From: a virus
Direction: 5' to 3' (one strand)
DNA length: 64,000 nt
IMG/VR virus record: IMGVR_UViG_3300022848_000777
Location: 96,001 to 160,000 of that record
Shown: piece by piece, positions 12,811-43,094 of the stretch
How positions within the stretch are numbered: position 1 is the first letter of the stretch
Layout of the letters: each line of letters opens with the position of its first letter
The notes under the pieces: model-generated
Database searches by the model: none
What the model was told of the DNA's origin: nothing
The model's input: only the letters and a program-made list of their open reading frames with translations
Position numbers and translations under genes: made by a program

Positions 12811-13610
12811 TTTGGCTATTTCAATTATTATTCGTACCTTTGTAGGGAATTTGGTGTTAATTTTCGAAAATCGGTAGGAATCCAATAATGACTAAAGATT
12901 AATTTGGCCATTTCAACTATTATTCGTATCTTTAGAGGGGGGCTTGATGCTAAATTTATTATAAAACAACCAATACAGGCGATCTATTGGGGTGGAGACT
13001 ACTTTGATGGCTTATAGAGACGAGGAAATTGTTTAGAAATCCAAAATGGCTATATATCACCCTCTGACTATGCTGCGACATCAATAAAATCTATTAGAAA
13101 TCCAATAGAGTGGTGTGATTATCAGTATATTACAGTAATCAGAATGGCATAAGAATCCAATAGTATCTCAGTGCGCCGTAGGAATCCAATAATGACTAAT
13201 TATTGATTTGGATATCTCAATTATTTTTCGTAACTTAGGATGGGATGGTCATGCGACTGAATTATTAATATGGCATGGGAATCCAATAATGACTAAAGAT
13301 TAATTTGGCCATTTCAATTATTTTTCGTAACTTAGGATGGGATGGTCATGCGACTTAATTTGTGATCTGCCGTAGGAATCCAATAATGGCTAAAGATTGA
13401 TAGGAATCCAATAGTGGTTATCTATTAATAGGAATCCAATAATGGCTAAAAATTGATTTGGCCATCTCGATTATTTTTCGTAACTTTGGATGGGACGGTC
13501 ACCTCACGTGTCCAGTTGGGAATCCAATAATGGCTAAAAATTGATTTGGTTAATTCAATTATTTTTCGTAACTTTGGATGGGACGGTCACTACCCGTATC
13601 CCGACCGATC
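12811..13610 (+). repeat. tandem array of promoter-containing repeats (GGAATCCAATAATGRCTAA...TTTGG...TTCGTAACTTWGGATGGGAYGGTCA)
   Basis: Units start at 12877, 13181, 13278, 13431 and 13519 (88-97 bp period), with 28-bp truncated units at 13375 and 13403 and a partial unit at 12811. Each full unit has -33 TTTG and -7 TAnnTTWG elements. Confidence 0.85.
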
Positions 13611-17284: not shown

Positions 17285-17320
17285 TGCCACTCCCCCCAGT
17301 AAGTAAGGGGGGGGGCGGCA
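17285..17320 (+). terminator. GC-rich hairpin after the AAA+ gene
   Basis: tgccactcccccc-agtaagtaa-gggggggggcggca. There is no immediate U-tract, so the terminator role is uncertain. Confidence 0.45.
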
Positions 17321-17519
17321 TTAACGTGTAACCAAAGAAAAAAAGACGCGAACCAAATCGGGCATTATCGACCCCCGTTGTGAGGCTACTTTTTCTCCCT
17401 AGGTAAAACCCTTCTGTAAAGCTTGTGTATCACACAAGCAGTATTTAATTAACAAGCAGAAGCCTTAAAAATAGCCTAAACTAGCTTTTGTTTTTATATT
17501 TTGTTAGGCACAGTTTATT

Positions 17520-17663
17520 ATGGACTACGAAGAAAGAGCAGAACACGAAATTGAACTGATAGAACAAGACGAAACATTAAGTGAAAAGAAAAAGTCTCAA
17601 GCAATAGAAGATGTTATACAAGAACTCCGAGAAGAACTCGAAGACCATAAAAACGGTAGGTAA
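17520..17663 (+). CDS. 47-aa acidic cassette protein (not in ORF track)
   Basis: MDYEERAEHEIELIEQDE...KNGR*, lying between GTTAGGCACA and TGTGCCTAAC. Confidence 0.6.
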   Translation: MDYEERAEHEIELIEQDETLSEKKKSQAIEDVIQELREELEDHKNGR

Positions 17664-18799
17664 TAATTTTTATTGTGCCTAACATAAAATAACAGATATG
17701 AAAAATAGTAATTTAGCATTATACGGAATACAGTCAAATATGGTAGGAGCAGAAACCTACGCACAAGCTGGCGACTTTGAGTTGTCTACGAAAATACATA
17801 TCGTTGATGTCTTATTAGCCAACGGAAGTCATTTACATATAGAATGTAATACTGAGGCACAAGCTAGAAGTATCTTGTCGACTTTATACTACTACTCTGT
17901 TAACGGTAATGATAACAACGTTGTAGAATTTGACTTTGACTTTACATTAAACTACTTGCCGATTGAACTTGCACTCAAATAAACAAATAAACACAATAAA
18001 TTTTTAAGATATGGAAGAATTGCTATTAAAGAATCAATTAGTTATAATGGAAGCTATGGTTAAGAATAGATTCAATCAAGACAAAGATGGATTGATAAAA
18101 CAGATTAAAATAATAAAAGAATTCTTAATTAATATTGAACAAATTTGAATTATGGGTAAAATGACAAAAATGACAAAAATTGATGCGGCAATAAGAGATA
18201 CCACATTATATTTTAGGAGAGCAGAAGAGAGTATAATGTTGCTAATGAGAGAGAAGAAAGTTTTACAAGAAAGGCTTAGTGCTCTTGAAGAGATAAAAGA
18301 TAGCGACCAATATGAATAATTTTTTTGTAACTTTAACGGATTGAATAATAACAAAACTTAATTATGAAATTACACGAAATTATTGAAGTACACGACAAAC
18401 CTTATTTTAGAAAAATGAGAGTAGAGAGTGGATTTATGTACAATTTTTGGGATGTAGAAAAGGATGACTACCAACAAGAATGGACTTTTGTGCCATACTC
18501 AAGCGAACTGGTTAAAAATTTCGAACACCGCATAGATACAACGGTAGGACTTTGGGCAACCGATGGGCCTGATTTAATCACAACTAAAAATACGAGAGAA
18601 GAATCAATAAAATGGTGGGATAGTTTAGGTTCAAACCCATTACTAGGGTTAATTGAAAAAGGTGAATTAACTACTAAGTATTTTGGCCCTGATAGAATCC
18701 CTGAATTATTAACTGGAAGAGAAATTGAAAAAATGTACGTATCTGAAAATGAAGATGACGTATATGTGTAGTTTTTACCCGACTAAATAAAACCGAATT

Positions 18800-19108
18800 A
18801 TGGAAGAATTATTAAAAAAAATAGGGCAGTTGCAGTATGAAATCAGTATATTAGATATTGATGAAGAGACATTAACAGGTGTTGATATTAGAACAGAAGA
18901 ATTAAAAGAGATGATAATCCAAGGGCAAGCATTACCTATAGATAGTGTTAACGTTTCGTTTGAATACGAAATGTTTATAAATGATAAAGGAACACCATTT
19001 GAAATGAACACTTGGATACCAATATCCAACGATAGAATTAAGGATGTTAGCAGGATAGATGAATACATTGAAAACGGTTTATTAAGAAAAATAGTTAATA
19101 AACGCTAA
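18800..19108 (+). CDS. chimeric protein: N-terminal module fused in frame to a cassette
   Basis: GTT at 18947 is Val50 in frame, and the stop codon is the TAA of the closing TAAC. Confidence 0.65.
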   Translation: MEELLKKIGQLQYEISILDIDEETLTGVDIRTEELKEMIIQGQALPIDSVNVSFEYEMFINDKGTPFEMNTWIPISNDRIKDVSRIDEYIENGLLRKIVNKR

Positions 19109-19644
19109 CGATTGGGCTATGAATTTTAAAAAATACGGTTATGGAAACTAAATATTATATAGCGATTGGACTTTTATTAATATCGATGGTGCTAACTTTT
19201 TTTGTACCGCTTTGGTTTGAATTAAGAGAGCACAAAAAGTGGATGAAAAGGAACGATTTTTAATTTTTACCCGACTAAATAAATAACTAAACAAATGGTA
19301 GCAATAGAGTATTTTGATAGATATAGTAGCACAGCAAATGAGCCCGATATAATGGGTAGATGGGCAAGAACGGCCATCTATAAAAACATCAGAATAGCTT
19401 GGATAAGTAGAATAGAAAATAAAGATGAAATTATTTTTAGTGTTTCTTGCCATTTCCCAACAATGCAGAACGATACAGCAAACGAACATAAACTATGTTT
19501 TAGTTTGGATGAAGCAAAAGAGTTTGTACAAGATCGCTGGGAATGGTTCTTAAATGAGGTTTCTTAAACGTTAAGGCTATGTGTAGTGCCAAAATTTTAA
19601 AATAAAATTAGGTAGTTCAACATATTATTCGTATATTTACAAGA

Positions 19645-19985
19645 TGTATAGAAGTCGGCAGCGAATCGACTAATACATTACAGACATTCTTGTACGTCCA
19701 ATAGCCTTTGTGCTGTATCGCTCGGAATGTTTAATTGAAAGCCGCTAGAGAGGGTTCTTAGAAAGCGGCACGGGTTTGCGAAAGGAACGCCCACTAAGAA
19801 GGTTTATTACACAACCTATAGAGTTCTGAGCATCGGATTGTAATTAAACGAAGCACCTAATAACGAAGGCTCAATGAAGGTTAAGCATATCGTTTAAAGG
19901 TATCGCCCTACGTAGTTTCGCAACGAACTTCTTAGGGATTGCTATACCTTTAACTCAGGTCTAAATCAGGTATAGCATAGTATTT
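19645..19985 (+). ncRNA. unidentified structured RNA (about 340 nt) inside the cassette array
   Basis: Promoter TTAGG(19608)...TATATTTA(19632). ORF-free and GC-enriched. Hairpins gccgct/agcggc and gggtttgc-gaaa, long-range gctcggaa/ttctgagc, and a long 3' hairpin aaaggtat...ataccttt. Confidence 0.55.
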
Positions 19986-20125
19986 AAAGTGTACACTAAC
20001 TAGTTTTTCTTTAGATTGGGTGGTAATTGTAAAAAATTACAACAATAAACTTGTGTAGTATAATTTAATTGATTACATTGGTCAAAGATAAGGGGGAAAC
20101 TTAACCCAATAGTGAATTAAATTAA

Positions 20126-20193
20126 ATAAAACGGTTTGGCTATGATGTCGGTTTTTATTTTTCTTAAAAACTGCATTATAGGTGGTGTTATAC
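20126..20193 (+). other. attC-like site
   Basis: AAC-GGTTTGG-CTATGATG(T)CGGTTTTTA/TAAAAACTGCATTATAG-GTGGT-GTT, with one extrahelical T. Confidence 0.75.
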
Positions 20194-20302
20194 CCTGTTT
20201 TTGAGCGTTGGATAAAATAATTTACAGAAAAGTGTATTTTTATTTGGTGGTTAATACAGAATGCTGTATATTTGTAGTATAATAATTAAAACAAAAGAAA
20301 TT

Positions 20303-20658
20303 ATGACAACCCAAGAAATGAACAACAAGGTAATAGTAAGAGCAAAAGAACTTTTAACAATACCACAAGTGCAAAAAGAATACCAATCAAAAGAAAATGA
20401 AGCAGAAGCAAAAGATTGGATTTTACACCAAGCACTAATAACTCTTATGTATTCTCACGAAGAAAGAATGGAGATGCTAAAGAAAAAACAAGCAGCATAA
20501 TGAGCAAAGACCTAATAAAATGGAGTGAACTGAGCCGCAAATTAAGCGGTTCAGACAACTCTATACGACATAATAAAATACCTAAAAAGTATGAACGCAA
20601 AGTAAATCGTTTACTGTGGATTCTCGATTTGTGGGAGCGTTGGGCAAATAGGGTATAA
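20303..20658 (+). CDS. two-gene cassette with its own promoter (20303-20500, 20500-20658)
   Basis: Canonical TTTG(20243)-TATATTTG(20267) promoter inside the cassette; TAATG-coupled ORFs; the second ORF is basic and HTH-like. Confidence 0.6.
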
Positions 20659-20747
20659 CGTTTAGTATATGGTTTTGTAAGCCATAGCAGAAATTTACAA
20701 TTGAAAAAGAATATTAATTGGCTTATAAACTATATACAGTGTTATAG
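20653..20747 (+). other. attC-like site
   Basis: AAC-GTTTA-GTATATGGTTT(T)GTAAGCCA...TGGCTTATAAACTATATAC-AGT-GTT. Confidence 0.78.
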
Positions 20748-20777
20748 TGAGTTTTTAAGTCATAAAATAACACAATA

Positions 20778-20936
20778 ATGAAAACACATAAAGTAATTGA
20801 CGTAACAACAATAAATGAAAACTCCTTATTTTACGGAACGATAGGGGAGTGTTATGAATGGAAAGTTGAGCAAGGATTTGGGTACAAAGTATTGCCATTA
20901 TCAAAAGAGGAGAAATCTTTAGCTAATTCACTATAA
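20778..20936 (+). CDS. 52-aa cassette protein (not in ORF track)
   Basis: MKTHKVIDVTT...ANSL*, with the stop overlapping TAAC. Confidence 0.6.
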   Translation: MKTHKVIDVTTINENSLFYGTIGECYEWKVEQGFGYKVLPLSKEEKSLANSL

Positions 20937-21002
20937 CGTTTGGCTATGTGTGGAAACTATATCTTAATTATTGCTAATGCTAAGTATAAAACCAGTAACG
21001 AC

Positions 21003-21278
21003 ATGAAGGAAAAAATTGATGAATTAATGGATAGGTTTGATGAAGGGAATATGTGTATAGATGACTTACACGGTGAGTTATTGGATTTATACAATGTTAC
21101 CCCTCGTTTTTTTGTGGCTTTGGTGTACCAAAATGTAGGGGCTACAATGTTAAGAACCTTAGTTACAAAATGTGACAACAAAGATGAGGCGTTAGGCAAA
21201 GCCATAAAATACTTTGCAGAAGAAACAAAAGGTTATGGCTTAGTAATGAAAACAGTTACTTCTCCAAATGGGGGGTAA
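21003..21278 (+). CDS. chimeric protein (N-module plus cassette)
   Basis: GTT 21096 is in frame (LLDLYN-V-TPRF); the stop is the TAA of the closing TAAT. Confidence 0.65.
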   Translation: MKEKIDELMDRFDEGNMCIDDLHGELLDLYNVTPRFFVALVYQNVGATMLRTLVTKCDNKDEALGKAIKYFAEETKGYGLVMKTVTSPNGG

Positions 21279-21364
21279 TGGTTTGGCTATGAATTGAAGC
21301 CAAGTAAAAATGTTCAATTCAATTACAAATCTTCATAGGCTTTTATTTATAGTCTGTGTTATAA
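21273..21364 (+). other. attC-like site
   Basis: AAT-GGTTT-GGCTATGAATTGAAGCC...GGCTTTTATTTATAGTC-TGT-GTT. Confidence 0.75.
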
Positions 21365-21375
21365 AACGTTTTATT

Positions 21376-21597
21376 ATGATTGCAAAAATTAAAAAGGACT
21401 TAAAAAATAAAGGGTACAAGACACCTAAAGTAAAGTACAATAGATTGAATACTCATTCAATTTCTTATGAAGTTGCACTGAATGAAGCAGACAAATCAAG
21501 TGCTTGGGACGGACATTATTTTGTAGGAGAAGAGGGAACAGGAAATTCCAAAGAAGCAATGATTGAGGATTGGAACTCTTTTGTAAATGATTTATAA
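21376..21597 (+). CDS. cassette protein
   Basis: MIAKIKKDLK...VNDL*. The reading frame stays open back through the GTT core at 21358. Confidence 0.6.
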   Translation: MIAKIKKDLKNKGYKTPKVKYNRLNTHSISYEVALNEADKSSAWDGHYFVGEEGTGNSKEAMIEDWNSFVNDL

Positions 21598-21620
21598 CGT
21601 TTAGGCTAAAAACAGTAAAG

Positions 21621-21941
21621 ATGAAGAACGAAATAAAAAACTTGATATATAAACACTTTGAACCTAAAGATGTGGGAATGGGAATTATAAATTGTATACA
21701 CGAAGATAAAGACGTTGATAAATTAGCAGAAAGCTTAGTTGATTTATTTTCTATACCCGTTGTTAGTAATTGGGTTGCGATCGAAAGTGATGAAAAACCC
21801 AAAAGATTTACAGAAGTTATGGTTAAGTACACAAACGGAATAACGGCAATTGCCGTGTTTGATGGTGATGGGCGGTTTTATATCGAAAAAGATGACAGGG
21901 ATATAACAGATATAGTTTTTGAATGGCATAATCTACCATAA
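21621..21941 (+). CDS. chimeric protein with a DUF551-like C-terminal module
   Basis: GTT 21762 is in frame (LFSIPV-V-SNW); the C-terminal part WVAIESDEKP...VMVKY...WHNLP resembles DUF551. Confidence 0.55.
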   Translation: MKNEIKNLIYKHFEPKDVGMGIINCIHEDKDVDKLAESLVDLFSIPVVSNWVAIESDEKPKRFTEVMVKYTNGITAIAVFDGDGRFYIEKDDRDITDIVFEWHNLP

Positions 21942-22351
21942 TTACGGGTAATGGTTAAACTATGTTATAGGAATAATTTTACGGATTAAAAACTAAAACA
22001 ATGGAAAGACTAATGATGATAATAGCAACACTTTGGCAGGAATTAAAAAAAGATTGGAAACGTTGGTAGCGTATGGGTTTATCCGTATATTACCTCTATA
22101 ATGATTGATAACCACCTAACAATAAAAATATATGGATTTTAGAGTAGAATATAGACATAGAGGAATACTTGAATATGTACATTTATCTAGCTGTGAAAAT
22201 ATAATGGATGCACTGCATAAATTCTATGAAGCACATGGAATAAGCACAGAGATTAATAAAATAGAACGTTGGTAAAAATTTATTAACAGTGAAGGTTGGT
22301 TTATCCAACTTTTTTTTGTATATTACAACATAGAAAAAACACAATATCGAT

Positions 22352-23752
22352 ATGAAAGCAGAAATGTACCAAATACTATTTGATGTAGAAAATAAAAACC
22401 TCACATCTGAACAAGCTCAAGTTCAGTTATGTGAGTTATTAAGTTTACTTAATACCGCCCATCTAAATTCCTATGACACTTATTCAGGCGATGCTTTACA
22501 TAAAATCCCGTTTGGACTTTATGAGATATTTTGGAAATCAGGGGGGTCATCCCTTGCAAGTGTTGGTAATATGCACGATGGTGTGAGGTGGATCGCACCT
22601 AGTAACTGGACATCAGCGACTTCACCAACGGGTAGAATGGATAAACACGCAGATTCAATCGAGCGAATGGTTCTTTTGTATGGTACGTAATGGTAATAGA
22701 TAAAAACAAAGTAATAATAACACAACCAAGAATGTTATGTACGTGTTGCTATACAGAAAACTGCAAAGGTGAGTGCTGGATAACAATTAGATTTTATAGA
22801 TGGATAATGCGGGTATTAAATTAAAATATATAAAATGGAATTAGAAGAACAACTTCAAATAGTAAAGGAATTACTTGAAGCAACACAAGAACTTCAGGGA
22901 GAGTACCAAGATGGTTGGGATAACAGTATTGAAGGGGGTGAAAGGCTTTTGGAGTACCTACAACACAAATTTGATTATGAAAACAATTGTTTAACATGAG
23001 ACACCAAATAGAATTACAAAGATTAGAAGTGTGGGCAAATAAACAAGAGATACTATATGCTTCATGTACTAAATCTAAAAAGAAACTGTACGTTTTAATG
23101 AGTAATAAATTTAAAGTGTATAGTAAAGGTAAATTAGTATATGAAACAATAATCGCATCAGCAGCAGTAGAGGCTTACAACGAACTTTAATTATACCCAA
23201 CCCCGCAAAAACCCAAACAATGATAGACATCGACTTAATATCAAACATAGTAATAGGTGGCATAGACCAAGAAGACTTTCCTGACTTCTGCGATTCCTAC
23301 ATAGAATCAGGAACCTACAAAAGCAGAGATCTAACAGATATCGAGTTAGATGAGATAAACGAAGACTCGGCTTTTGTTTACGAGAAAACTATTGAATCTA
23401 TGTATTAGCTAATGACTAAACTATGTTTTGGTTGTTTTTACAACTTAAATATAGATTTTGTTAGCATTAGTACGGATTATTAACTAAAAAAATAAATAGA
23501 ATGAAAAAATTCAACATTAATGATTATATCTATATCCAGATAACAGAATTAGGATGGAAACACTTAGAGAAAACAGTAGGTAGTGAATACATAAAACATT
23601 GTATTAACGCTGACGGGTATAAAAAAGAGATAGATAACGAAACGTGGCATAGACTACAAGCGCATGACGTGTTTAGTTTATTACCTATGGGAACAGGATT
23701 TAATTTATTATACAATCCAAACGTAATGTTTGATGGGGATGCGTTAAAGTAG
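22352..23752 (+). CDS. hypothetical proteins within the array (22352-22690, 22987-23190, 23220-23408, 23501-23752)
   Basis: From the ORF track. 23501-23752 fills a complete cassette (23460-23765). Confidence 0.6.
23407..23466 (+). other. attC-like site
   Basis: AAT-GACTAAA-CTATGTTTTGGTTGT-TTTT-ACAACTTAAATATAG-ATTTT-GTT. Confidence 0.75.
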
Positions 23753-23758
23753 TATTAA

Positions 23759-23820
23759 TGCTAACGTTAAGGGTATGGTGTCGTTTGCTTTTCGCAAATG
23801 CACTATAACCAGTGTTGTGC
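23759..23820 (+). other. attC-like site
   Basis: TGCTAAC-GTTAA-GGGTATGGTG(T)CGTTTGC-TTTTC-GCAAATGCACTATAACC-AGT-GTTGTGC. Confidence 0.8.
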
Positions 23821-23855
23821 ATAGTACGGATTATTAAAAACTAAAATTAAATAGA

Positions 23856-24599
23856 ATGGAAATAAACAAAATATATAATGAAAATTGCCTTGATACAATG
23901 GCGAAAATGGAAGATAACTTTATTGACTTAATAGTTACATCACCACCTTATTTTAATGCTAAAGAATATTCACAATATGATAGCGTTTCAGAATATATGA
24001 GACAAATGAAAGATATTTTCTTAGAAACTGAAAGGGTGATTAAAGAGGGTAGGATGTGTGTTATAAATATTAGCCCTGTACTTGTTGCTAGGGAAAAAAG
24101 AAGTAAACAAAGCTATAGAATACCATTACCTTATTATTTTGTGCCTATGATGGAGGAAATAGGCTTTGAGTTTTTAGAGGACATTATATGGGAAAAGCCA
24201 GAAGGTGCTGCTGCAAATAGAAACGGTGGTTTTTTTAGGAGTAGAAAACCATTAGCATACAAGCCTAATATAGTTACAGAATATATATTAGTATTTAAGA
24301 AAAAGTCAAATTTATTAATAGATAAGTATTTAAAAAACAATAGCCTTGTTAGTGATGGTTATGAAAGGAGTAATATTTGGAAAATACAACCACAAACGAA
24401 AAGTAAGCGCCCAGCACCTTTCCCTGATGAAATTGCTGACAAATTAATAAAATACTATTCGTATGAAAATGATTTAGTTTATGACCCGTTTATGGGAAGT
24501 GGAACAACTGCAAAGATGGCTAAACTAAATAATAGAGATTTCATAGGTAGTGAAATGGTTGAGGATTACTGTGTAATTGCAAATGAACGATTAAAATAG
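23856..24599 (+). CDS. orphan DNA methyltransferase, beta class (probably N4-cytosine)
   Basis: Motif IV TSPPY precedes motif I DPFMGSGTT; PAPFP also present. It occupies a complete cassette. Confidence 0.92.
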   Translation: MEINKIYNENCLDTMAKMEDNFIDLIVTSPPYFNAKEYSQYDSVSEYMRQMKDIFLETERVIKEGRMCVINISPVLVAREKRSKQSYRIPLPYYFVPMMEEIGFEFLEDIIWEKPEGAAANRNGGFFRSRKPLAYKPNIVTEYILVFKKKSNLLIDKYLKNNSLVSDGYERSNIWKIQPQTKSKRPAPFPDEIADKLIKYYSYENDLVYDPFMGSGTTAKMAKLNNRDFIGSEMVEDYCVIANERLK

Positions 24600-24605
24600 T
24601 ATTAT

Positions 24606-24658
24606 GCACAACACAAGGCTAAACTGTCGTTTTCAATACAGTTTAGTTAATGTTATCT
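24606..24658 (+). other. attC-like site
   Basis: GCACAAC-ACAA-GGCTAAACTGT...ACAGTTTAGTT-AAT-GTT. Confidence 0.75.
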
Positions 24659-24683
24659 TTTGTTAATAAGTAAACTAAAAATT

Positions 24684-25252
24684 ATGAAAACAATTAATTT
24701 ATTTGGCAAAGAAATGCCAATTGAGAAAGAATACGAAGCAGCAGTTTGTGTATGGGAAACGATTGGTTCAAGTATTGATGATTATGAAGATGTTAAAATA
24801 AAACTAGGACAGAAAATATATAATATTAAAATATTGGAAACTGGTAGTATTATTTTTACAACATCACCAGATAGTAAAATTAATATGGTGACAATGTTTC
24901 CTCAAATGTTTGGATTTCCAAGCGATGAGCAACTAATTGAAGTTAAAAATTTAGAAGATATTATAAGCAAATCACATGATAAAATAAATGATATTTATAA
25001 TAGTATTGAACGAACTGGTTATACTGATATACCGTTTTAAAACTAAATATTATGAATGAAGATATTATAAAATTAAAAAACTTGATTGAAGAGTATGAAG
25101 AACTTTGTGAAGAATCTGAACAAATGAGCAAAGATTGGGAAAGTGGTTCTGAATGTGAATCGGCAATGGCAGACCCTAGCGACAAATATATGAAGGGTAT
25201 GCAGATTGAAGAAAAGCGCAATGAAATTAAGAGTGTCTTAAATACACTCTAA
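24684..25252 (+). CDS. two hypothetical proteins (24684-25040, 25052-25252)
   Basis: Lie between GTT 24652 and TAAC 25250-25253. These two ends do not pair, suggesting a deletion-fused pair of cassettes. Confidence 0.55.
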
Positions 25253-25284
25253 CGTTGAGTATAACAATTAAAAATAGATAAATT

Positions 25285-34936: not shown

Positions 34937-35023
34937 GGAAGGTTGACAGAATGGTATTGTAGCGGATTGCTAATCCGTGGTCGTTAGTTCGGCTTGTGAG
35001 TTCGAATCTCACATCTTCCACCA
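34937..35023 (+). tRNA. tRNA-Ser(GCT)
   Basis: Cloverleaf with long variable arm and encoded CCA. Confidence 0.92.
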
Positions 35024-35184
35024 AAAATTAATTAACAATTTCTTAACATATGAAATTAGGTTTAACCAAACTAAATTCGTATCTTTGTTTTGTTGGGTTA
35101 GGGAAGAAACGTTTTCTTTAATCATTAGAGTTTGAAATATTAATATCGTTACTGTGGATCGATAGTAACGATTATAAAATAAAT

Positions 35185-35258
35185 GGTACTGCATCATATC
35201 GGTGTATGCTGCTTCCCTGTCACGGAAGAGATTGTGGGTTCGAATCCCATCAGTACCG
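35185..35258 (+). tRNA. tRNA-Asp(GTC)
   Basis: Acceptor GGTACTG/CAGTACC; loop CT-GTC-AC. Confidence 0.9.
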
Positions 35259-35303
35259 CTTTAGAGTTTTTATAAGTTTCTCTTTTAAAGAACTTTGTTT
35301 TTC

Positions 35304-35375
35304 CGCCCATTCGTCTAACGGCTAGGACTTTAGGTTTTCGACCTGAGAATGAGAGTTCGATTCTCTCATGGGTGA
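35304..35375 (+). tRNA. tRNA-Glu(TTC)
   Basis: Acceptor CGCCCAT/ATGGGTG; loop TT-TTC-GA. Confidence 0.85.
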
Positions 35376-35529
35376 CAAATTGGTATAGTTTAGCACATCC
35401 CCATAAGGATGTTAAAACGACTTTCAAGGATAAGGTAAGAAAGATGAATTAACATCTACCGTGCATATTAATAGTTTAGTTCATTGACGTATTGGGAATT
35501 ATGAAGTGGTTTAAATTCCACTTCAATTT

Positions 35530-35618
35530 GGAAGGGCGTATGGCTGGCGTACTTATCAGTCTTGAAAACTGTGATGTCGGGTAAAACTGGCGTGTGGGTT
35601 CGATCCCCACTCTTTCCA
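35530..35618 (+). tRNA. tRNA-Ser(TGA)
   Basis: Loop CT-TGA-AA; long variable arm. Confidence 0.88.
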
Positions 35619-35807
35619 CAACAGCATAGGAACGTGAATACTCATCATTGAAACAAGTACTATACTCTAAGTGAAATTAATATTTAGTAAGTGTTGGTGA
35701 TGCTTCAACGAACGATTGATAAAGTAACTTAAAAAATTATCATTTATGGTAGTGATTGGGAATAGCCAATTAATGCATGAAAACAGCTACCATAAATGAT
35801 TTTACAA

Positions 35808-35881
35808 TGGCTCGTAACTCAGCTGGTTAGAGTACTCGACTTTTAATCGAGGTGTCGTGAGTTCGATCCTCACCGGGCCAA
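35808..35881 (+). tRNA. tRNA-Lys(TTT)
   Basis: Canonical cloverleaf. Confidence 0.93.
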
Positions 35882-36075
35882 CAAATTTCGTTAGTTTAAT
35901 CTTCGTGTTTAACAACACTGAAAAACGCCCTACGTGTGGGTACTGATAGTATGAAATCTATCACGAGATTACTTTATTAAAAAATAACCCAAATGATGTA
36001 TTAGTTCCCATGCACAATGGATCTGATGTGATCATAACGGTATCATATTTCTAGAGTGTGGTATTTAGGGTTTAT

Positions 36076-36160
36076 ACCTTTGTGGCGAAATGGTTAATAC
36101 GCGCTAGCCTTAGAAGCTAGTATCAGAAATGGTGTATGGGTTCGACTCCCATCAGGGGTA
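36076..36160 (+). tRNA. tRNA-Leu(TAG)
   Basis: Cloverleaf with long variable arm. Confidence 0.92.
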
Positions 36161-36165
36161 CACAT

Positions 36166-36248
36166 GCTGGAATGGCGGAATGGTAGACGCGCAGGTTTCA
36201 AAAACCTGTATCCGAAAGGGTGTGTGGGTTCAACTCCCACTTTCAGTA
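36166..36248 (+). tRNA. tRNA-Leu(CAA)
   Basis: Cloverleaf with long variable arm. Confidence 0.92.
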
Positions 36249-36273
36249 CAAACAACTTCTAACGTGGAAGTTG

Positions 36274-36425
36274 GGTAACGTGGTGAAACTGGAAAACACG
36301 CTGTTTGTCTGCATCTGCCTTTGGAATTGGCAATAGTTAAAAGAGGGAAAAGTCATAATCCCGAAACTAGAAACAACTAGGCGAGGCGGGTGACTTAAGT
36401 ATGGGTTCGAATCCCATCGTTACTA
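36274..36425 (+). ncRNA. tRNA-like RNA with a roughly 70-nt structured insert replacing the anticodon loop
   Basis: Acceptor GGTAACG/CGTTACT+A, Leu-type D arm GTG..GG..CAC, perfect T arm ATGGG-TTCGAAT-CCCAT; 152 nt in total. Confidence 0.75.
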
Positions 36426-36527
36426 CTAAGAGAGAAGGAAGCGGCGCATCACTAATCGATGAAAATACGCTGTTGAGGGGGCTGATTAGATGCCATGCGG
36501 ATGTGACGTGAAATTCTCTTTTTAAAT

Positions 36528-36613
36528 GCTCCTGTGGCGAAATGGTTATACGCGCTGGGTTTAAATTCCAGTATCTGAAACATGGTGTGTGGGTTCGAAT
36601 CTCTCTAGAGGTA
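36528..36613 (+). tRNA. tRNA-Leu(TAA), degenerate copy
   Basis: Anticodon arm intact; mismatches in the acceptor (C:A) and T stem (T:T). Confidence 0.7.
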
Positions 36614-37066
36614 CTATTAAAATATATGGGGGTGTGTAAGTAGCACTTACAGGTAGGTAGCATGAGAAGCTTGAAGAATCGGATAGAATTACGTAATATA
36701 TCTGGGAGATAGTTGATAGCTAGAATAAAACCTACTGGCCCACCCTCACCAATTAAATGTTCCTTAATTAAGGAACATTATTAAAATACGGGCCAACTAA
36801 GATTGTAAATTTAGTTAACTACTAGGCTAGTGTGTCACACATGATGAGAAATAGGGTAGTTCCTTATAGTGAAAAGTGGTTGGATGAATTGCCACCAGAT
36901 TGATCATCTGTCTAAGAATTAAGAGATAAATTATAGGCTTCTCACTGATCTATTCCTAACTTTTTACAAATAGGCTGAGTCGGCTCCTTTTTGGATAGAC
37001 ACGATAGTAATTTGTATTGAGGACAACAATGAACATCTCAGCTGGATAATACATGGTGTTCAACTT

Positions 37067-37140
37067 ACTTCTATAGCTCAGTTGGTTAGAGCAATTCTTT
37101 TACATGGAATAGGCCATTGGTTCGAATCCAGTTAGGAGTA
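37067..37140 (+). tRNA. tRNA-Val(TAC)
   Basis: Canonical cloverleaf. Confidence 0.92.
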
Positions 37141-37156
37141 CAATTATTAAAAATAT

Positions 37157-37239
37157 GGGCATCGAAAGTTGATTGGATTCAGCAGCCAGACTGTAAATCT
37201 GGTCCTTTACGGGGAGTGGTTCGAATCCACCGAGGCCCA
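37157..37239 (+). tRNA. tRNA-Tyr(GTA)
   Basis: Loop CT-GTA-AA; long variable arm. Confidence 0.88.
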
Positions 37240-37442
37240 CAATAAAACAAAATCCCACTTGAAGATAAACAACACTTACGTTTGAGACCTTAACATTAAG
37301 TTGGTAGGAGAGGGGTATAAACTGTATCAGCAGTTGTGTTTATTGTAGAGGTAGGCGTAAGATGTTTTGTGGTATAAGTACCCGCCAATCCCTTACAAGT
37401 ATTCCACTGAAATTTGGATGGGGGTTTGTTTTATTTTGATAT

Positions 37443-37513
37443 CGGGTTGACGAATGGGGTATCGGCTATGATTTGGAGTCATGGCGTAGTGAGTTCGACT
37501 CTCACCAACCCGA
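37443..37513 (+). tRNA. tRNA-Pro(TGG)
   Basis: Acceptor CGGGTTG/CAACCCG; reduced D arm. Confidence 0.82.
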
Positions 37514-37527
37514 CGATATTAGTAAAC

Positions 37528-37601
37528 GCATCTGTAACTCAATTGGATAGAGTGTCTGCCTTCGAAGCAGAGAGTTGGGAGTTCGAGTCTCTCCAGGTGT
37601 G
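37528..37601 (+). tRNA. tRNA-Arg(TCG)
   Basis: Canonical cloverleaf. Confidence 0.9.
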
Positions 37602-37815
37602 CAATTGTAATATAATATTACTTCATAAAAACTTGAAATAGATGTGGTAAAACACTACGTATCGGGTAGAATGGATAGGCAAAATAGGTTGGGGTTATAC
37701 ACAAGTCATGTAAATAGGAAGCTACCCATCACTATCCAATAAGATTGATGAAAATATTAACGATTATCCTTTAGAGTGGTGACTAACATCAATTATAATT
37801 TATCTATTTCAATAT

Positions 37816-37887
37816 TGCCCCCTCATCTAATTGGCAGGATGCCTGGTTTTGAGCCAGAGAATTGAGGTTCGAATCCTTGGGGGGCAA
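37816..37887 (+). tRNA. tRNA-Gln(TTG)
   Basis: Acceptor TGCCCCC/GGGGGCA. Confidence 0.9.
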
Positions 37888-37901
37888 CTATATTTAAAAT
37901 C

Positions 37902-37975
37902 GGTTCCATAGTTTAGAAGGCATAAAATAAATCTCTTGTAAAGATTAGAAATCAGTTCGATCCTGATTGGAACCT
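37902..37975 (+). tRNA. tRNA-Thr(TGT)
   Basis: Loop CT-TGT-AA. Confidence 0.88.
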
Positions 37976-37979
37976 CTAA

Positions 37980-38051
37980 GGTGTTGTAACTCAGCGGTAG
38001 AGTGCTAGATTGAAGATCTAGTGGTCGGTGGTTCGATCCCACCCAGCACCA
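37980..38051 (+). tRNA. tRNA-Phe(GAA)
   Basis: Canonical cloverleaf. Confidence 0.92.
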
Positions 38052-38064
38052 CAATATAAAATAC

Positions 38065-38136
38065 ACAAGTGTCGTCTAATGGCTAAGATTACGGATTCCA
38101 AACCCGTAGATGGGGGTTCGATACCTTTCACTTGTG
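38065..38136 (+). tRNA. tRNA-Trp(CCA)
   Basis: Loop TT-CCA-AA. Confidence 0.88.
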
Positions 38137-38228
38137 CAATTATTAACAATTTGGTAACATAGAAAATTAGGATATGATATCAAATAACCGTATCTTTATT
38201 TCATTCTGTTGATTCAGAACTATAACAT

Positions 38229-38302
38229 TCCCCCGTAGCTCAGTTGGTTAGAGCGGCACCCTGTTAAGGTGAGGGTCATAGGTTCGAATCCTATTGGGGG
38301 AG
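38229..38302 (+). tRNA. tRNA-Asn(GTT)
   Basis: Canonical cloverleaf. Confidence 0.92.
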
Positions 38303-38349
38303 CAACATAAATTAAATAACATATAAAATCTTAGAAGTTTGATAAGTAT

Positions 38350-38423
38350 GGGTATATAGCTCAATTGGTTAGAGCATCACCCTGATACGGTGAAGGTTAT
38401 GAGTTCGAGTCTCATTATACCCA
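38350..38423 (+). tRNA. tRNA-Ile(GAT)
   Basis: Canonical cloverleaf. Confidence 0.93.
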
Positions 38424-38547
38424 CTTAATTTTAATACGGAGATGTAATGAAGAAATTAATAAAAGAGAACTTAGATACTATAGGTATACTTGTATTTTTA
38501 ACAATTTATACGTTAATTGTAATAAGTTATATGTACTAAGTAATTAT

Positions 38548-38622
38548 GGTGATTATAGCTCAGTTGGTTAGAGTGCTTGACTGTGAATCAAGAGGTCGTC
38601 AGTTCGAGTCTGACTTTTCACC
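38548..38622 (+). tRNA. tRNA-His(GTG)
   Basis: G-1:C73 present; two T:T mismatches in the acceptor stem. Confidence 0.88.
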
Positions 38623-38628
38623 CAAAAT

Positions 38629-38700
38629 GCCGTAACTTTTGGAAGGGTAAGGTGTAAGCGCTTATGCTAGTTGCTTGGGGTTCGAATCCCCGTTACGGCT
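38629..38700 (+). ncRNA. tRNA-like RNA with no assignable anticodon
   Basis: Perfect acceptor GCCGTAA/TTACGGC+T and T arm TGGGG-TTCGAAT-CCCCG; the anticodon arm cannot form a 5-bp stem with a 7-nt loop. Confidence 0.7.
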
Positions 38701-38773
38701 CAAATATTTAAATCAAAGCGGAAGATTGTACATTAAATTGTCCGAAGTACTTAACAGATTGATTTAAAATTAT

Positions 38774-38847
38774 GGTATAGTACCCAAGTGGTCTAAAGGG
38801 GCGGGTTGCAACCCCGTTATTCATTGGTTCGAATCCAATCTATACCT
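38774..38847 (+). tRNA. tRNA-Cys(GCA)
   Basis: U73; loop TT-GCA-AC. Confidence 0.9.
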
Positions 38848-38875
38848 CTAATATAAACAAGTAATATATGTAATA

Positions 38876-39328
38876 ATGAAAGTTTTCAAAAAAGTAAACG
38901 GTGAAAAAGTAGATGTAATTAAACACACTTTGGATGTAATCAAAAAAAACCCTGATGTAGAAATACATATCGGTACAGATTCACAAAGCAGTGGACATCT
39001 AACCACATACGTTACTGTGATTGCTTACAGATATTCCACACGTGGAGTTCATTACATATTTTGGAAAGAAAAAGTACCTAGAATTAAAGATAAGTTTACT
39101 AAATTATACAAAGAAACTGTATTGACTATTGAAGTAGCTGAATGGTTTACTTCTCAAATCAAAAGTGTAAAGGTTGAATTGGATTTCGATTACAATGGTG
39201 ATAAAAAGCACTTCTCTCAAAGATTAGTTCCAGCAACGAAAGGTTGGGCAGAAGGTTTGGGATATAAGGTGAATATTAAACCAGTAAAGCAAATCGCTAC
39301 TCATGCAGCGGATTACCACTGTAGATAA
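38876..39328 (+). CDS. RNase H-like YkuK/DUF458 family protein
   Basis: IHIGTDSQ...KLYKE...ELDFD...ATHAAD. Confidence 0.85.
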   Translation: MKVFKKVNGEKVDVIKHTLDVIKKNPDVEIHIGTDSQSSGHLTTYVTVIAYRYSTRGVHYIFWKEKVPRIKDKFTKLYKETVLTIEVAEWFTSQIKSVKVELDFDYNGDKKHFSQRLVPATKGWAEGLGYKVNIKPVKQIATHAADYHCR

Positions 39329-39648
39329 CTTCACAATTTAATATTGTAGAAATTCCAGCTGGGAAGTGGAAGTTAACACATAAATATGGTATATCAGAAA
39401 AAGGATATCACGAGAATTTACCATACGCTACGATGGAATTATTGAAATAAATTAGGATTATCGAAATATTATCCGTATATTGTAAGAGCAGATTAAGAGT
39501 GAGAGCAAAAGAAACACATCATGCGAAAACCCTTCGTTTGAAAATGAGCTGTTGAGTTTGGGAATCGGGAGATAAAACGATGAATATACAGCATTGAGAT
39601 AGGGCCCAAAAGCCTCTGATGTGTTTTTTTATATTAATGATTACATAT

Positions 39649-39722
39649 GCGCCCATAGTTCAACTGGATAGAGCATTGTTTTTCTAAAGCAATAGTTGTG
39701 AGTTCGAGTCTCGCTGGGCGTA
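39649..39722 (+). tRNA. tRNA-Arg(TCT)
   Basis: Canonical cloverleaf. Confidence 0.92.
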
Positions 39723-39739
39723 CTAAAATACAATAAAAT

Positions 39740-39813
39740 TGCGGGGTGGACTGGAGAGGCTCCAGCTCGGTCTCATAAGCCGAATGACGTAGGTTCGAAT
39801 CCTATCCCCGCAA
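39740..39813 (+). tRNA. tRNA-Met(CAT), initiator-like
   Basis: Acceptor TGCGGGG/CCCCGCA+A, as in fMet tRNAs. Confidence 0.85.
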
Positions 39814-40162
39814 CTAAACTTATAATGACTATAAGTGAAGCTAAAAGAAGTTGGAATTTGATAAGGGTTTATCACCAACACCAGTTATTTTTAGAAACCC
39901 CGAAAGACCCGAAGTGGTCGTTGTAAGTTTTTTATAAAAATTAATTCAACAATTATGATATTTAATTAAAGGTTAAACCTATGACCTTGTGGAGTATTAA
40001 GCACGTTCGAGTAATGTAAGAGCTTAATAACACTAAATAAAGATAGAATATAAATTGTTAGTATTAGGCTTCCTACCATAGTATAAGATTCCTAATAGAC
40101 ATATTATATCTATTATACTACACTCAATAGGTTGAAAAATGAGTGTATACTTTTATAAAACT

Positions 40163-40237
40163 ATGGAAGAATGGAGAATAATTAGAGATTACGTGGATTA
40201 TAGTGTTTCTAATAAATCAACGATTACTATACTATGA
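40163..40237 (+). pseudogene. NUMOD4 (HNH homing endonuclease N-terminus) remnant
   Basis: MEEWRIIRDYVDYSVSNK followed by an early stop. Confidence 0.55.
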
Positions 40238-40319
40238 TACCGATGGTAGTTTAGATGAAATAATGCATGAGAATGGTAAATTTATAAGATTTGCACCATT
40301 CCGTTAAGTATGATTAAAT

Positions 40320-40405
40320 GCCTCGATGGTGAAATTGGTAGACACGCTGGACTTAAAATTCAGTCCTCAGTGATGGGGGTACGGGTTCGAATCCCGTTCG
40401 GGGCA
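40320..40405 (+). tRNA. tRNA-Leu(TAA)
   Basis: Canonical, with long variable arm. Confidence 0.93.
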
Positions 40406-40640
40406 CTACAAAAATAATGATAAGGTTTTTAACGGTGTTAAGAATCAACTATAATTAACAACATAGATAACCTATATAATATATAATCTTATATAGTTAA
40501 TAATATGATGGGTATACATATGAAAGGAATAATCCACATATATGCAATCTGAATAAGTAGTTATAGAAGATTCACCTGATTCAGATTCATTTTACCGATT
40601 CGCTGGTATTATGATATAACGCGAAATGAAACCGTTTAAT

Positions 40641-40714
40641 GGGGTCTTAGCTCAGTTGGCCAGAGCACTGGATTTGCAATTCAGATGTCAGGGGTTCGAA
40701 TCCCCTAGGCTCCA
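40641..40714 (+). tRNA. tRNA-Ala(TGC)
   Basis: G3:U70 present. Confidence 0.93.
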
Positions 40715-40733
40715 CTTTTTTAAATTAATAGAT

Positions 40734-41222
40734 ATGAAGATAATATTTTTAGATATTGATGGTGTTATGGTTCCCGATTACCAAAAGGTAAATGATCAAG
40801 CATTTCCTAAAGATAATGATTGGGATGCAAAACCATTTTCTCAAAAAGGAATGATAACGTTAAATAATGCAATTTTATCAACTGATGCTAGAGTAGTTAT
40901 TAGTTCAGATTGGAGAAAGCATTATTCGTTACAGGTTATGAGAGATATTTTTGTAGCAGCTGGAATTCTTTATGGTGAAGATACTATTATTGGATATACT
41001 AAAATAATAGGATATGGTGATTATAAATCTAATAGAGCACAAGAAATTCTAGAATGGGTTAGTCTACATAGACCAGATCAATGGGTTGCTATTGATGATT
41101 TAGATTTATCACCATACTTATCAGAGGATAACTTTGTCCACTGTAAATACCCAATTGAGGGTATTAAACAACTCGGCAAACGAGCAGAGATTGAAATAAA
41201 ATTAGGAAGAATTAAACAATAA
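40734..41222 (+). CDS. HAD-family phosphatase, RNA-repair ('Swiss Army Knife') type
   Basis: IIFLDIDGV, VISSDWR, RAQEILEW, WVAIDD. True start is 40734; the upstream extension in the ORF track is tRNA-Ala. Confidence 0.82.
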   Translation: MKIIFLDIDGVMVPDYQKVNDQAFPKDNDWDAKPFSQKGMITLNNAILSTDARVVISSDWRKHYSLQVMRDIFVAAGILYGEDTIIGYTKIIGYGDYKSNRAQEILEWVSLHRPDQWVAIDDLDLSPYLSEDNFVHCKYPIEGIKQLGKRAEIEIKLGRIKQ

Positions 41223-41240
41223 CGATTGTTTATAATAATT

Positions 41241-41635
41241 GGGGCTGACTTGGAATTGATTAGCAGATCTAGTTTATGTGAGTGCAATCAGAGAAATGTC
41301 ATCTATCTCTATAATCTATGGTGATAATAGTTAAACGACGAAAAGTCAGATTTTACCTTCGAAGATGCAATGTCTTTCGTAGGTGGTGAGTTCGCTCTAG
41401 CAGCGTAGCCGATGGGTGATAACTACCTAGAAACAGAAAGTTATAAGTGGGTGCTAACTACCTTAAAGTGTAGTAGGATAGTGGAAATCCGTTATGAGAA
41501 TGTTTTTACAAAGTTGACATTATAAACCACATCAATAATTTTGGTATTTTGTTTATTTAGAAAAATGAACTATGATTGTGAATGAATTTGTATGACGTGC
41601 TGAATAAGACGAGGGTTCGAATCCCTCCAGCTCCA
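41241..41635 (+). ncRNA. ssrA: tmRNA
   Basis: GGGGCTG...GAGGGTTCGAATCCCTC-CAGCTCCA with G3:U70. Tag ORF 41337-41408 reads DEKSDFTFEDAMSFVGGEFALAA*. Confidence 0.95.
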
Positions 41636-41714
41636 GATAACCGAAATTAACACACCTGCACGTGGTGGTTATCGCATATTCCGATTTGGAATAACTAAGA
41701 TGTTAATAATATAA

Positions 41715-41788
41715 GCGTGAGTAGCTCAGTTGGTCAGAGCGTTTGGTTTCCAACCAAAGGGTCGTGGGTTCGAATCCCACCTTGCGCT
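41715..41788 (+). tRNA. tRNA-Gly(TCC)
   Basis: Canonical cloverleaf. Confidence 0.93.
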
Positions 41789-41861
41789 CAAATAAACATT
41801 AAATTAAATTAGGATATATAAAATAGAATTCGTATATTGTATTTATATAATATATATTATC

Positions 41862-41936
41862 GGGCCTTTAGCTCAGTTGGTTAGTAGCAGTACGCTCATA
41901 ACGTAAAGGTCGGGGGTTCGAGTCCCTCAAGGCCCA
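41862..41936 (+). tRNA. tRNA(CAT), probably Ile2 (lysidine type)
   Basis: Acceptor GGGCCTT/AAGGCCC resembles Ile2; elongator Met is not excluded. Confidence 0.8.
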
Positions 41937-41962
41937 CTCAAATTAAATAATAAGGATGATAA

Positions 41963-42559
41963 ATGAAAGTAGTAACATTAGAGAACCTAGCATACGCTAT
42001 TAAATACGGTAACAAATCATCAGTTAATGAGGCCTCATTAAATAGGGTATATCAACATACTCAAAAAGAAGCATCTGATAGCTTTTCTATAATCACCGCA
42101 TATCGTGGTGGTAATAGTAAATCAGATAACACAAAAAGAAATAAACGATTGGAATCTGATGTTAGATCATTAGGATTGGGTTTCTTTAAAGTTAAAGGTT
42201 ATTGGATGGAATGTAAGAGTGCTGATATTGATTACTCTAAATGTCCTGATGATATGAAGATACCAGTAGTTGAAGAATCGTTATTCATTCCCAATATAAC
42301 TAAATCAAATGCAGTTAGGTTAGCAAAGAAATACGATCAAGATGCTATCATCTATCAAGGTAAAGAAACCAACGATACTGTTGAATTGATTTCAAAATCA
42401 GGTGGTTCTATTGATAAAATTGGTAAGTTTTCAGCTGGGAAAATAGCAAGAGCATATACTAAGGTTAAAGGTAAATCATTTACGTTTGAAGGATTTGAGT
42501 ATAAACCAAATGGGATGTTAACTAGAATGGCATTTGAATCGATAATGAAGAAAGTATGA
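41963..42559 (+). CDS. SAM lyase/DUF3293-like protein
   Basis: IITAYR...N..RNKRL...LG...VKGYWME...EESLFI...AKKYDQDAII, a pattern resembling phage SAM lyases. Confidence 0.55.
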   Translation: MKVVTLENLAYAIKYGNKSSVNEASLNRVYQHTQKEASDSFSIITAYRGGNSKSDNTKRNKRLESDVRSLGLGFFKVKGYWMECKSADIDYSKCPDDMKIPVVEESLFIPNITKSNAVRLAKKYDQDAIIYQGKETNDTVELISKSGGSIDKIGKFSAGKIARAYTKVKGKSFTFEGFEYKPNGMLTRMAFESIMKKV

Positions 42560-42915
42560 GGTGGGAGAATGTAAGTTTACCTAATAAGATACAATATCTT
42601 AAACAATTAATGAATAATTCTACAGTAGATGTAAGTAGAGATGTCGATGTCATAGATGCATTAATCACAGGTTCAACGACACCATTTTATATGGATGATG
42701 AACTTCAATTTAAAATGCAAGATTCACATATTACATACATGAAAAATTTATGGAATGTAGTTGTAGGTTTACAAAAAAATCAATCAATAATTGATTTAAT
42801 TAAAAGTGAAGTAAAATAATATTTAACATTAATTTAACATCAAAAGTTTTGTTAAGTTAATTTTAATACTTATATTAGCACGGTTGAAACGATAATGATT
42901 GTGGAAACTATAAAT

Positions 42916-42988
42916 GCGGGTGAGGGGTTAAGGGAATACCCGTTTAACTTCCAGTTAGAAGAAGGTGGGTCAGTTCCATCCACCCGCT
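42916..42988 (+). tRNA. tRNA-Gly(TCC), non-canonical T loop
   Basis: Acceptor GCGGGTG/CACCCGC+T, loop CT-TCC-AG, T loop GTCAGTT instead of TTCRANY. Confidence 0.75.
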
Positions 42989-43094
42989 CAAAAAGATTTA
43001 ACATTAATTTAACATATTAAATTTGGATATCTTATTTAAGTTTCGTATATTGTGGGTGTTAAATAAGTAAAGAAATCGTTCTTTGAAAGTATTG

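Follow-up and report, generated by a model that had tools for sequence, protein, structure and literature searches.

Considering that several unrelated small genes of a virus genome are each bracketed by a GTT and an AAC end that pair with one another, the question raised by this locus is whether these units are mobile gene cassettes and which agent could move them. The stretch analysed (hereafter, the window) comprises 64,000 nucleotides (nt), C1:96001-160000, of the linear virus record IMGVR_UViG_3300022848_000777 (174,750 bases, 90% complete), and the array in question occupies positions 17445 to 25268 of it. We consider it quite probable that this is an orphan, partly decayed array of integron-like cassettes of Bacteroidota and their phages, moved by a tyrosine recombinase without the I2 helix, and it belongs to an integron-like system that is apparently undescribed.

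The six GTT/AAC pairs quoted by a first-pass annotation, which was made from the DNA letters alone, are all present where it placed them, and two further pairs (18947/19109 and 21358/21598) raise to eight the number of cassette bodies in which one end pairs with the other. In an 8x8 complementarity matrix the own-partner assignment scored 79 against a permutation mean of 44.75 and was the best of 40,320 permutations (p = 1/40,320, 2.5e-5), bearing out the statement that the ends pair only with their own partner. This pairing is confined to the array: open reading frames (ORFs) bracketed by ends complementary at 10 or more of 11 positions amount to 5 of 23 inside it versus 1 of 219 elsewhere in the genome. 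Using a covariance model whose training set held five of the six intact window sites (23410 was left out), we recovered the six intact sites first proposed (20129, 20656, 21276, 23410, 23762 and 24609), all with E<=1.4e-4, and no significant site beyond the array in 174,750 bases. The intact sites measure 47-89 nt, the earlier range being 40-85 nt, and a total above 10 half-sites is reached only by counting the arms of long-loop sites as well, the clear orphan arms being about 5-8; 20934/21096 and 21595/21762 are not pairs of half-sites, they are long-loop sites of approximately 165-170 nt, whose loops, approximately 140 nt long, include a start codon.

Evidence for mobility comes from homologous cassettes in other phages. 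In all 12 families of such cassettes the ORFs keep the same core boundaries and have other neighbours, as the cassette proposal had anticipated, and the downstream hairpin differs. The second ORF of the cassette at 20187-20659 was found at 27 viral loci, mostly ending at the same AA|C core and followed nearly every time by a different hairpin; the ends of this cassette covary in L221, L230, L233 and L237, a change at one end being matched at the other, and the L213 homologue of the cassette at 23460..23765 has ends that are different yet complementary. Identity between homologues is 0.86-1.0 through AA and drops to background at the C (0.82 at this position versus a background of 0.83). In pair counts dominated by one family, the hairpin is common to 8 of 68 pairs at the GTT side versus none of 116 at the AAC side, with a background of about 1%. 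Salt-lake metagenomes contain DNA of the window phage, and their contigs, possibly the assembly's own source, back the assembly; lake contigs of other phages diverge from the window sequence at 20656 and 23459. A cassette consists of a hairpin, GTT, the gene and AA, and the exchange point on the coding strand separates AA from C. These comparisons of sequence support the view that the window units are cassettes moved by site-specific recombination at AAC/GTT cores.

Homologous recombination alone might be the agent, considering that a RecA/UvsX gene is present at C1:42963 and that the first gene inside the cassette at 20187 has been exchanged for another in L029 and L048 without any core. The hairpins would then be linker repeats, like the modular-exchange repeats of other phages, with no site-specific enzyme. 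We judge this very improbable, since the linkage stops at the single base AA|C and not across the arm, covarying ends 470-800 nt apart give homologous recombination no advantage, and the arrays adjoin one recombinase family with an attI-like site.

The assembled lake contigs contain no well-supported excision joint; one of them joins 17683 to 21281, AAC to hairpin, with 20 letters on one side and a depth of 2, and its source may be another phage. In L516 (7658-7928 and elsewhere) a single cassette end is present twice, once at an attI-like site and once in front of a hairpin, the pattern that excision followed by re-insertion would leave. Different genes framed by identical end pairs were not used as evidence, being about what chance collisions could give among 262 cassettes.

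Viral relatives of the recombinase associated with such arrays were found by a profile search of viral contigs with an alignment of enzymes; a single host enzyme as query had returned none. In at least 39 of 80 viral contigs a relative of 265-270 amino acids (aa) lies directly downstream of a same-strand array, and in 30 of these a conserved AAC|TAYTATAT attI-like site is located 36-52 nt before the recombinase start codon. The array-adjacent enzymes reach 145-194 bits on TIGR02249 (cut-off 265), show gaps relative to IntI at I2 and have NF040815 as their best family match; arrays lie regularly beside these I2-less enzymes and never beside IntI. In a tree whose deep branch order is not settled, 21 of 24 phage enzymes form a single clade (100/99) that falls among those of the hosts and is separate from both IntI and XerC/D. 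Genomic adjacency suggests that these enzymes serve the sites next to them. Cultured phages also carry arrays, with 8 sites in Flavobacterium phage mumin6-1 (L060:1601-6180) and approximately 11 in Polaribacter phage P12002L (L540:29200-45500), and both arrays include several methyltransferase cassettes.

The left-arm motif is widespread in Bacteroidota genomes as well. A first gapped pattern search of host genomes gave no sites because the host loops are longer; site arrays of 25-110 kb in three chromosomes end at a tyrosine recombinase of 375-400 aa, and end pairing in host arrays is 5.5-5.7 of 7 versus 2.6-2.7 (two genomes). Among 19 further host loci, picked solely by likeness to the array recombinase, sites lie downstream of the recombinase in 18 and number two or more in 16, and an attI-like first junction occurs 27-132 nt past the recombinase stop codon in 17 of 21 host loci. 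The host enzyme scores 178-194 bits on TIGR02249, under the same cut-off, and aligns to IntI4 in two pieces, the I2 region being absent. Where cassettes are repeated within one host genome, the hairpin stays on the GTT side (36 vs 10 pairs). Most host arrays are downstream of a co-oriented recombinase; in a second array of one Maribacter chromosome (L456, G002:C1:1247678-1264429) the recombinase is divergent from the cassettes, a fully classical layout, so that three layouts exist. The Tenacibaculum chromosome G003:C1 has four arrays of 11-21 sites near 1.02, 1.20, 1.64 and 3.64 Mb, and no recombinase was found beside them (L444, L210, L447, L450). On the Acinetobacter plasmid NZ_CP045132 (L539:2564-4585), tet(X3) stands directly after a recombinase-family fragment and an attI-like junction and is followed by a hairpin-like left part, a unit resembling a cassette of the host type that was captured along with its platform.

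The AAC and GTT cores enclose an imperfect hairpin with unpaired spacers of 5 nt and 3 nt and an inner stem with a conserved G.T pair, spacer and inner-stem statistics that are partly biased by the pattern used to select the sites. Among the positions not used for selection, 12-14 outside the core pair in 72-90% of cassettes and position 11 is T in 100%, opposite G in 78-83%, so the folded site is nearly two-fold symmetric. G.T pairs outnumber C.A pairs in inner stems (78:4 in phages, 242:16 in hosts) with a detector whose scoring favours G.T, and the folding energy of the + strand is lower than that of the other strand in all six window sites. Classical attC sites have an extrahelical G and T in the L box of the folding strand; in the window a bulged T is present in sites 20129 and 23762 and a T.T mismatch or no bulge in others, and it is the G.T wobble that is conserved. 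The strand that reads AAC-hairpin-GTT with the wobbles corresponds to the bottom strand of attC. Given such spacers, and wobble pairs on the coding strand, the classical attC geometry attributed to these sites by the first-pass annotation is not supported.

The placement of wobbles on the coding strand extends to other phages. Phage cassettes carry the ORF on the folding strand (81:3 and 134:2; 215 vs 5), host cassettes on the non-folding strand (114:13 and 124:14; 238 vs 27); phage polarity, which the first-pass annotation overlooked, is the mirror of the classical orientation seen in hosts. With the gene on the folding strand, the hairpin heads the gene at its 5' side and the loop can supply a start codon and leader: translation starts inside the hairpin loop in 75 of the 262 phage cassettes, 62 reading GTT as Val, and three window ORFs likewise start there. 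Phage cassettes as flipped host bodies are excluded by the T11/G11 asymmetry, which follows the folding strand in both groups, and this argues that phage cassettes are built in their own polarity. As a cause of the flip, a link between the folding strand and the lagging-strand template, an idea drawn from PMC5371416, agrees with 17 of 25 host arrays and disagrees with all four arrays of G003; our guess is that co-oriented operon transcription of the phage platforms towards attI and the enzyme might fix the gene direction. We hold with moderate confidence that Bacteroidota phages run their own platform, with an I2-less clade of recombinases, folded single-stranded DNA sites, mirror polarity and a cassette pool common to unrelated lytic phages, among them large myoviruses that, like the window phage, do not encode the enzyme.

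A site nearly symmetric about its axis and an XerA-like enzyme without I2 would also suit an Xer-like exchange of two strands on double-stranded or cruciform DNA, or the cutting of either strand, with hairpins and bodies as separate modules; swaps of the GTT-junction hairpin between phages and between host genomes fit this as well. We find it rather unlikely, considering that the wobble pairs are strongly strand-asymmetric, that the hairpin is kept with the GTT side within one host genome, and that attI-like sites are always on the AAC side.

In the single-strand mechanism that we favour, the coding strand, single-stranded or extruded, would fold to give an outer stem of 14 bp, the unpaired 5/3-nt spacer and the inner stem, each stem having an invariant T opposite G, and an Xer/IntI-like tyrosine recombinase without I2 would cut it at AA|C. 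Cassettes would be excised as circles whose two ends pair, and reinserted at another AA|C. No tyrosine recombinase was detected in the genome of the window phage by PF00589, tblastn or profile A2, and no phage-type attI-like site in the window array, terminal unit included; the enzyme would thus have acted in trans, supplied by a co-infecting phage (265-270-aa type) or by the host, or else ready-made cassette blocks may have been taken from other phages. The agent acting on the window array is likely a tyrosine recombinase outside this genome. What stands of the recombinase proposal of the first-pass annotation is cassettes at AAC/GTT cores and a likely outside agent; IntI itself as the enzyme does not, and neither does a gene elsewhere in this 90%-complete phage genome. 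Two sites follow the flanking AAA ATPase gene in only 1 of the 80 relatives found via that gene, and the other 79 have no array after it, which, with the lack of enzyme and attI-like site, identifies the array as an orphan, lineage-specific acquisition; the flanking exonuclease gene, used as a lead, turned up only unrelated contexts. Unrelated phages would likely benefit by trading protective methyltransferases and small early genes.

Several points weigh against the single-strand mechanism with an outside, I2-less enzyme. The GTT-side hairpin is often replaced in phages, being common to only the 8 of 68 pairs given above and to 1 of 6 families, an outcome not predicted by a model with one strand and one junction; such replacement needs cutting of the other strand or exchange by RecA/UvsX. 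The I2 helix has been reported as needed for single-strand cassette recombination (PMC7790495), and the part of the genome that is missing could encode a recombinase.

Whether the array is still active is a separate matter. The cassettes may have been made and shuffled elsewhere and gained as blocks by ordinary recombination, leaving an inert, decaying relic, a possibility to which we give slightly less than an even chance and which is compatible with the reading above on origin, differing only on present activity. The lack of recombinase and attI, the truncated arms with a 1.4-kb decayed stretch, the single array-bearing relative among 80 and the phage's own RecA/UvsX are in its favour, whereas six sites and seven end pairs (9-11/11) are still intact and the thinly covered contig joining 17683 to 21281, which may derive from another phage, would point to activity.

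The features of the array are given in Table 1. Several of its parts recur elsewhere: an intact site of Cellulophaga phage phi46:3 matches the half-site at 17445..17505 with 90% identity over 80 nt, the arm at 19106..19124 is found in the same truncated form in L045 and L232, a hairpin near-identical to site 20129..20190 adjoins other genes in L008 and L057, and site 20656..20744 is 92% identical to a hairpin in the recombinase-encoding phage contig L524. The cassette at 20187..20659 has its own Bacteroidota-type promoter motif (20243-20274), and PF01555 is the only family identified among the array gene products.

Table 1. Features of the cassette array, in window coordinates.
Feature	Position	Strand	Evidence
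Right half of hairpin site, left arm lost	17445..17505	+	arm score 14.7
Cassette body, ORF 17520-17663 (47 aa), no hairpin after	17503..17683	+	end pairing 9/11
ORF (102 aa) reading through orphan right arm	18800..19109	+	GTT core 18947 in frame
Cassette body	18947-19109	+	end pairing 7/11
Orphan left arm running into translation start	19106..19124	+	arm score 19.4
Orphan left arm	19566..19584	+	arm score 10.3
Intact hairpin site 1	20129..20190	+	E 7e-12; + strand z -5.4
Two-gene cassette, ORFs 20303-20500 and 20500-20658	20187..20659	+	homologous cassettes, covarying ends
Intact hairpin site 2	20656..20744	+	covariance model match
Cassette body, ORF 20778-20936 (52 aa)	20741..20937	+	end pairing 10/11
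Long-loop site with start (21003) of ORF crossing GTT core in frame	20934..21099	+	
Cassette body, 3' part of ORF 21003-21278, core ends AAT	21096..21279	+	end pairing 10/11
Intact hairpin site 3	21276..21361	+	covariance model match; 93% identical to L023 site
Cassette body, ORF 21376-21597 (73 aa), overlooked by the first-pass annotation	21358..21598	+	end pairing 10/11
Long-loop site with start of ORF 21621-21941, core crossed in frame	21595..21765	+	arm scores 18.8, 19.8
Decayed stretch, small ORFs without clear sites	21762..23409	+	
Degenerate body, ends differ by 3-nt indel	21762-21952	+	inside decayed stretch
Truncated arm	21949	+	inside decayed stretch
Intact hairpin site 4	23410..23463	+	E 1.4e-4, outside training set; z -4.0
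Cassette body, ORF 23501-23752 (83 aa)	23460..23765	+	end pairing 11/11
Intact hairpin site 5	23762..23817	+	covariance model match, folding energy
Cassette body, N6/N4 DNA methyltransferase 23856-24599	23814..24612	+	end pairing 11/11; PF01555 E 9.5e-44
Intact hairpin site 6, resembles published P12002L_attC1	24609..24655	+	covariance model, folding energy
Terminal unit, two ORFs, ends not matching	24652..25268	+	orphan left arm at 25250

As to the genome setting, 150 of the 152 long ORFs of the virus record are on the + strand, and the baseplate wedge is 43% identical to its counterpart in Flavobacterium phage immuto. Upstream of the array, a region with few ORFs (12811-13610) holds repeated units, Bacteroidota promoter-like motifs and numerous AATCCAATA copies, and a hairpin of G/C runs lies at 17290-17310, where position 17307 has one base fewer in two runs, probably a homopolymer assembly slip. 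Downstream, 27 tRNA genes (34937-44146) are clustered with a tmRNA (41241-41635) and a GOLLD RNA (43663-44146) in which a tRNA-Leu is embedded.

An Xer-like enzyme is considered to have become an integron integrase through the I2 insert; if the reading proposed here is true, cassette recombination does not need I2, and the system would be a living model of the integron ancestor. Because an I2-less enzyme accompanies dozens of phage arrays as well as Bacteroidota chromosomal arrays that reach about 100 kb, a large gene-capture system may escape current integron finders. That genes consistently face opposite ways in phage and host cassettes is relevant to the unanswered question of how cassettes come into being, and a cassette system would account for some of the mosaicism in the accessory regions of Bacteroidota phages. 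A literature search that left most subscription journals outside found no paper on an I2-less recombinase or mirror-polarity system of this kind.

Among known elements, Flavo-1 (RF01705) is, like the present sites, a structured repeat reported from Flavobacteria, but the sites do not match it or other Rfam families in a genome scan, the best Flavo-1 match in the genome (E 1.7, below the 42-bit Rfam score) not being a site. XerC/D acting on phage attP (CTXphi, IMEX) and archaeal XerA have in common with this system an I2-less Xer-type enzyme, and CTXphi is known to offer a folded single strand as substrate, as PMC7790495 discusses; the present system differs in that its cassettes are many, its cores vary and its dedicated enzyme does not group with host XerC/D. 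A dif consensus was not seen, no search aimed at dif having been made.

The nearest published case contradicts the first-pass statement that no description matches: integrase-less attC clusters (CALINs) have been reported in virulent phages, one of them a Bacteroidota phage whose cassettes encode methyltransferases (PMC9892861, Qi et al. 2023). That phage, P12002L, is likewise lytic and without integrase, and our model matches its P12002L_attC1 (E 0.002) and four more sites, all on the coding strand. In that study the sites, attC1 having been predicted by HattCI alone, were treated as classical attC and two were tested; neither polarity nor a cognate enzyme was named. That the window array is such a CALIN in the classical sense, with ordinary attC sites served by IntI, seems to us hardly credible, despite integron-like AAC/GTT cores and end pairing and despite the fact that IntI1 recombined a P12002L sequence, attC2, at a cassette-ending AAC of the gene-coding strand; attC2 corresponds to a cassette's AAC end when the opposite strand is read. 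The intact P12002L_attC1 was the only one of six that gave no IntI1 co-integrate, the covariance model does not match the classical integron of phage M16-3, the adjacent enzymes stay under the TIGR02249 cut-off and have no I2, and IntegronFinder 2.0 found almost no complete IntI integrons in Bacteroidetes (PMC9024848).

Compared with integrons, sedentary arrays and CALINs as a whole, the system has the same AAC/GTT cores, ends complementary within one cassette only, a crossover that takes place at AA|C of whichever strand folds better, and a tyrosine recombinase with an attI-like junction beside arrays. It differs in the recombinase without I2, the 5/3-nt spacers and the 14-bp outer stem with its invariant T.G, and the window array has neither IntI nor an attI at its end. 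A classical site is located 3' of its gene, with a non-coding folding strand, as in the hosts; phage ORFs occupy the folding strand itself and run in the direction of attI and the recombinase. The system works like an integron yet fails classical membership because I2 is missing and the phage polarity is reversed.

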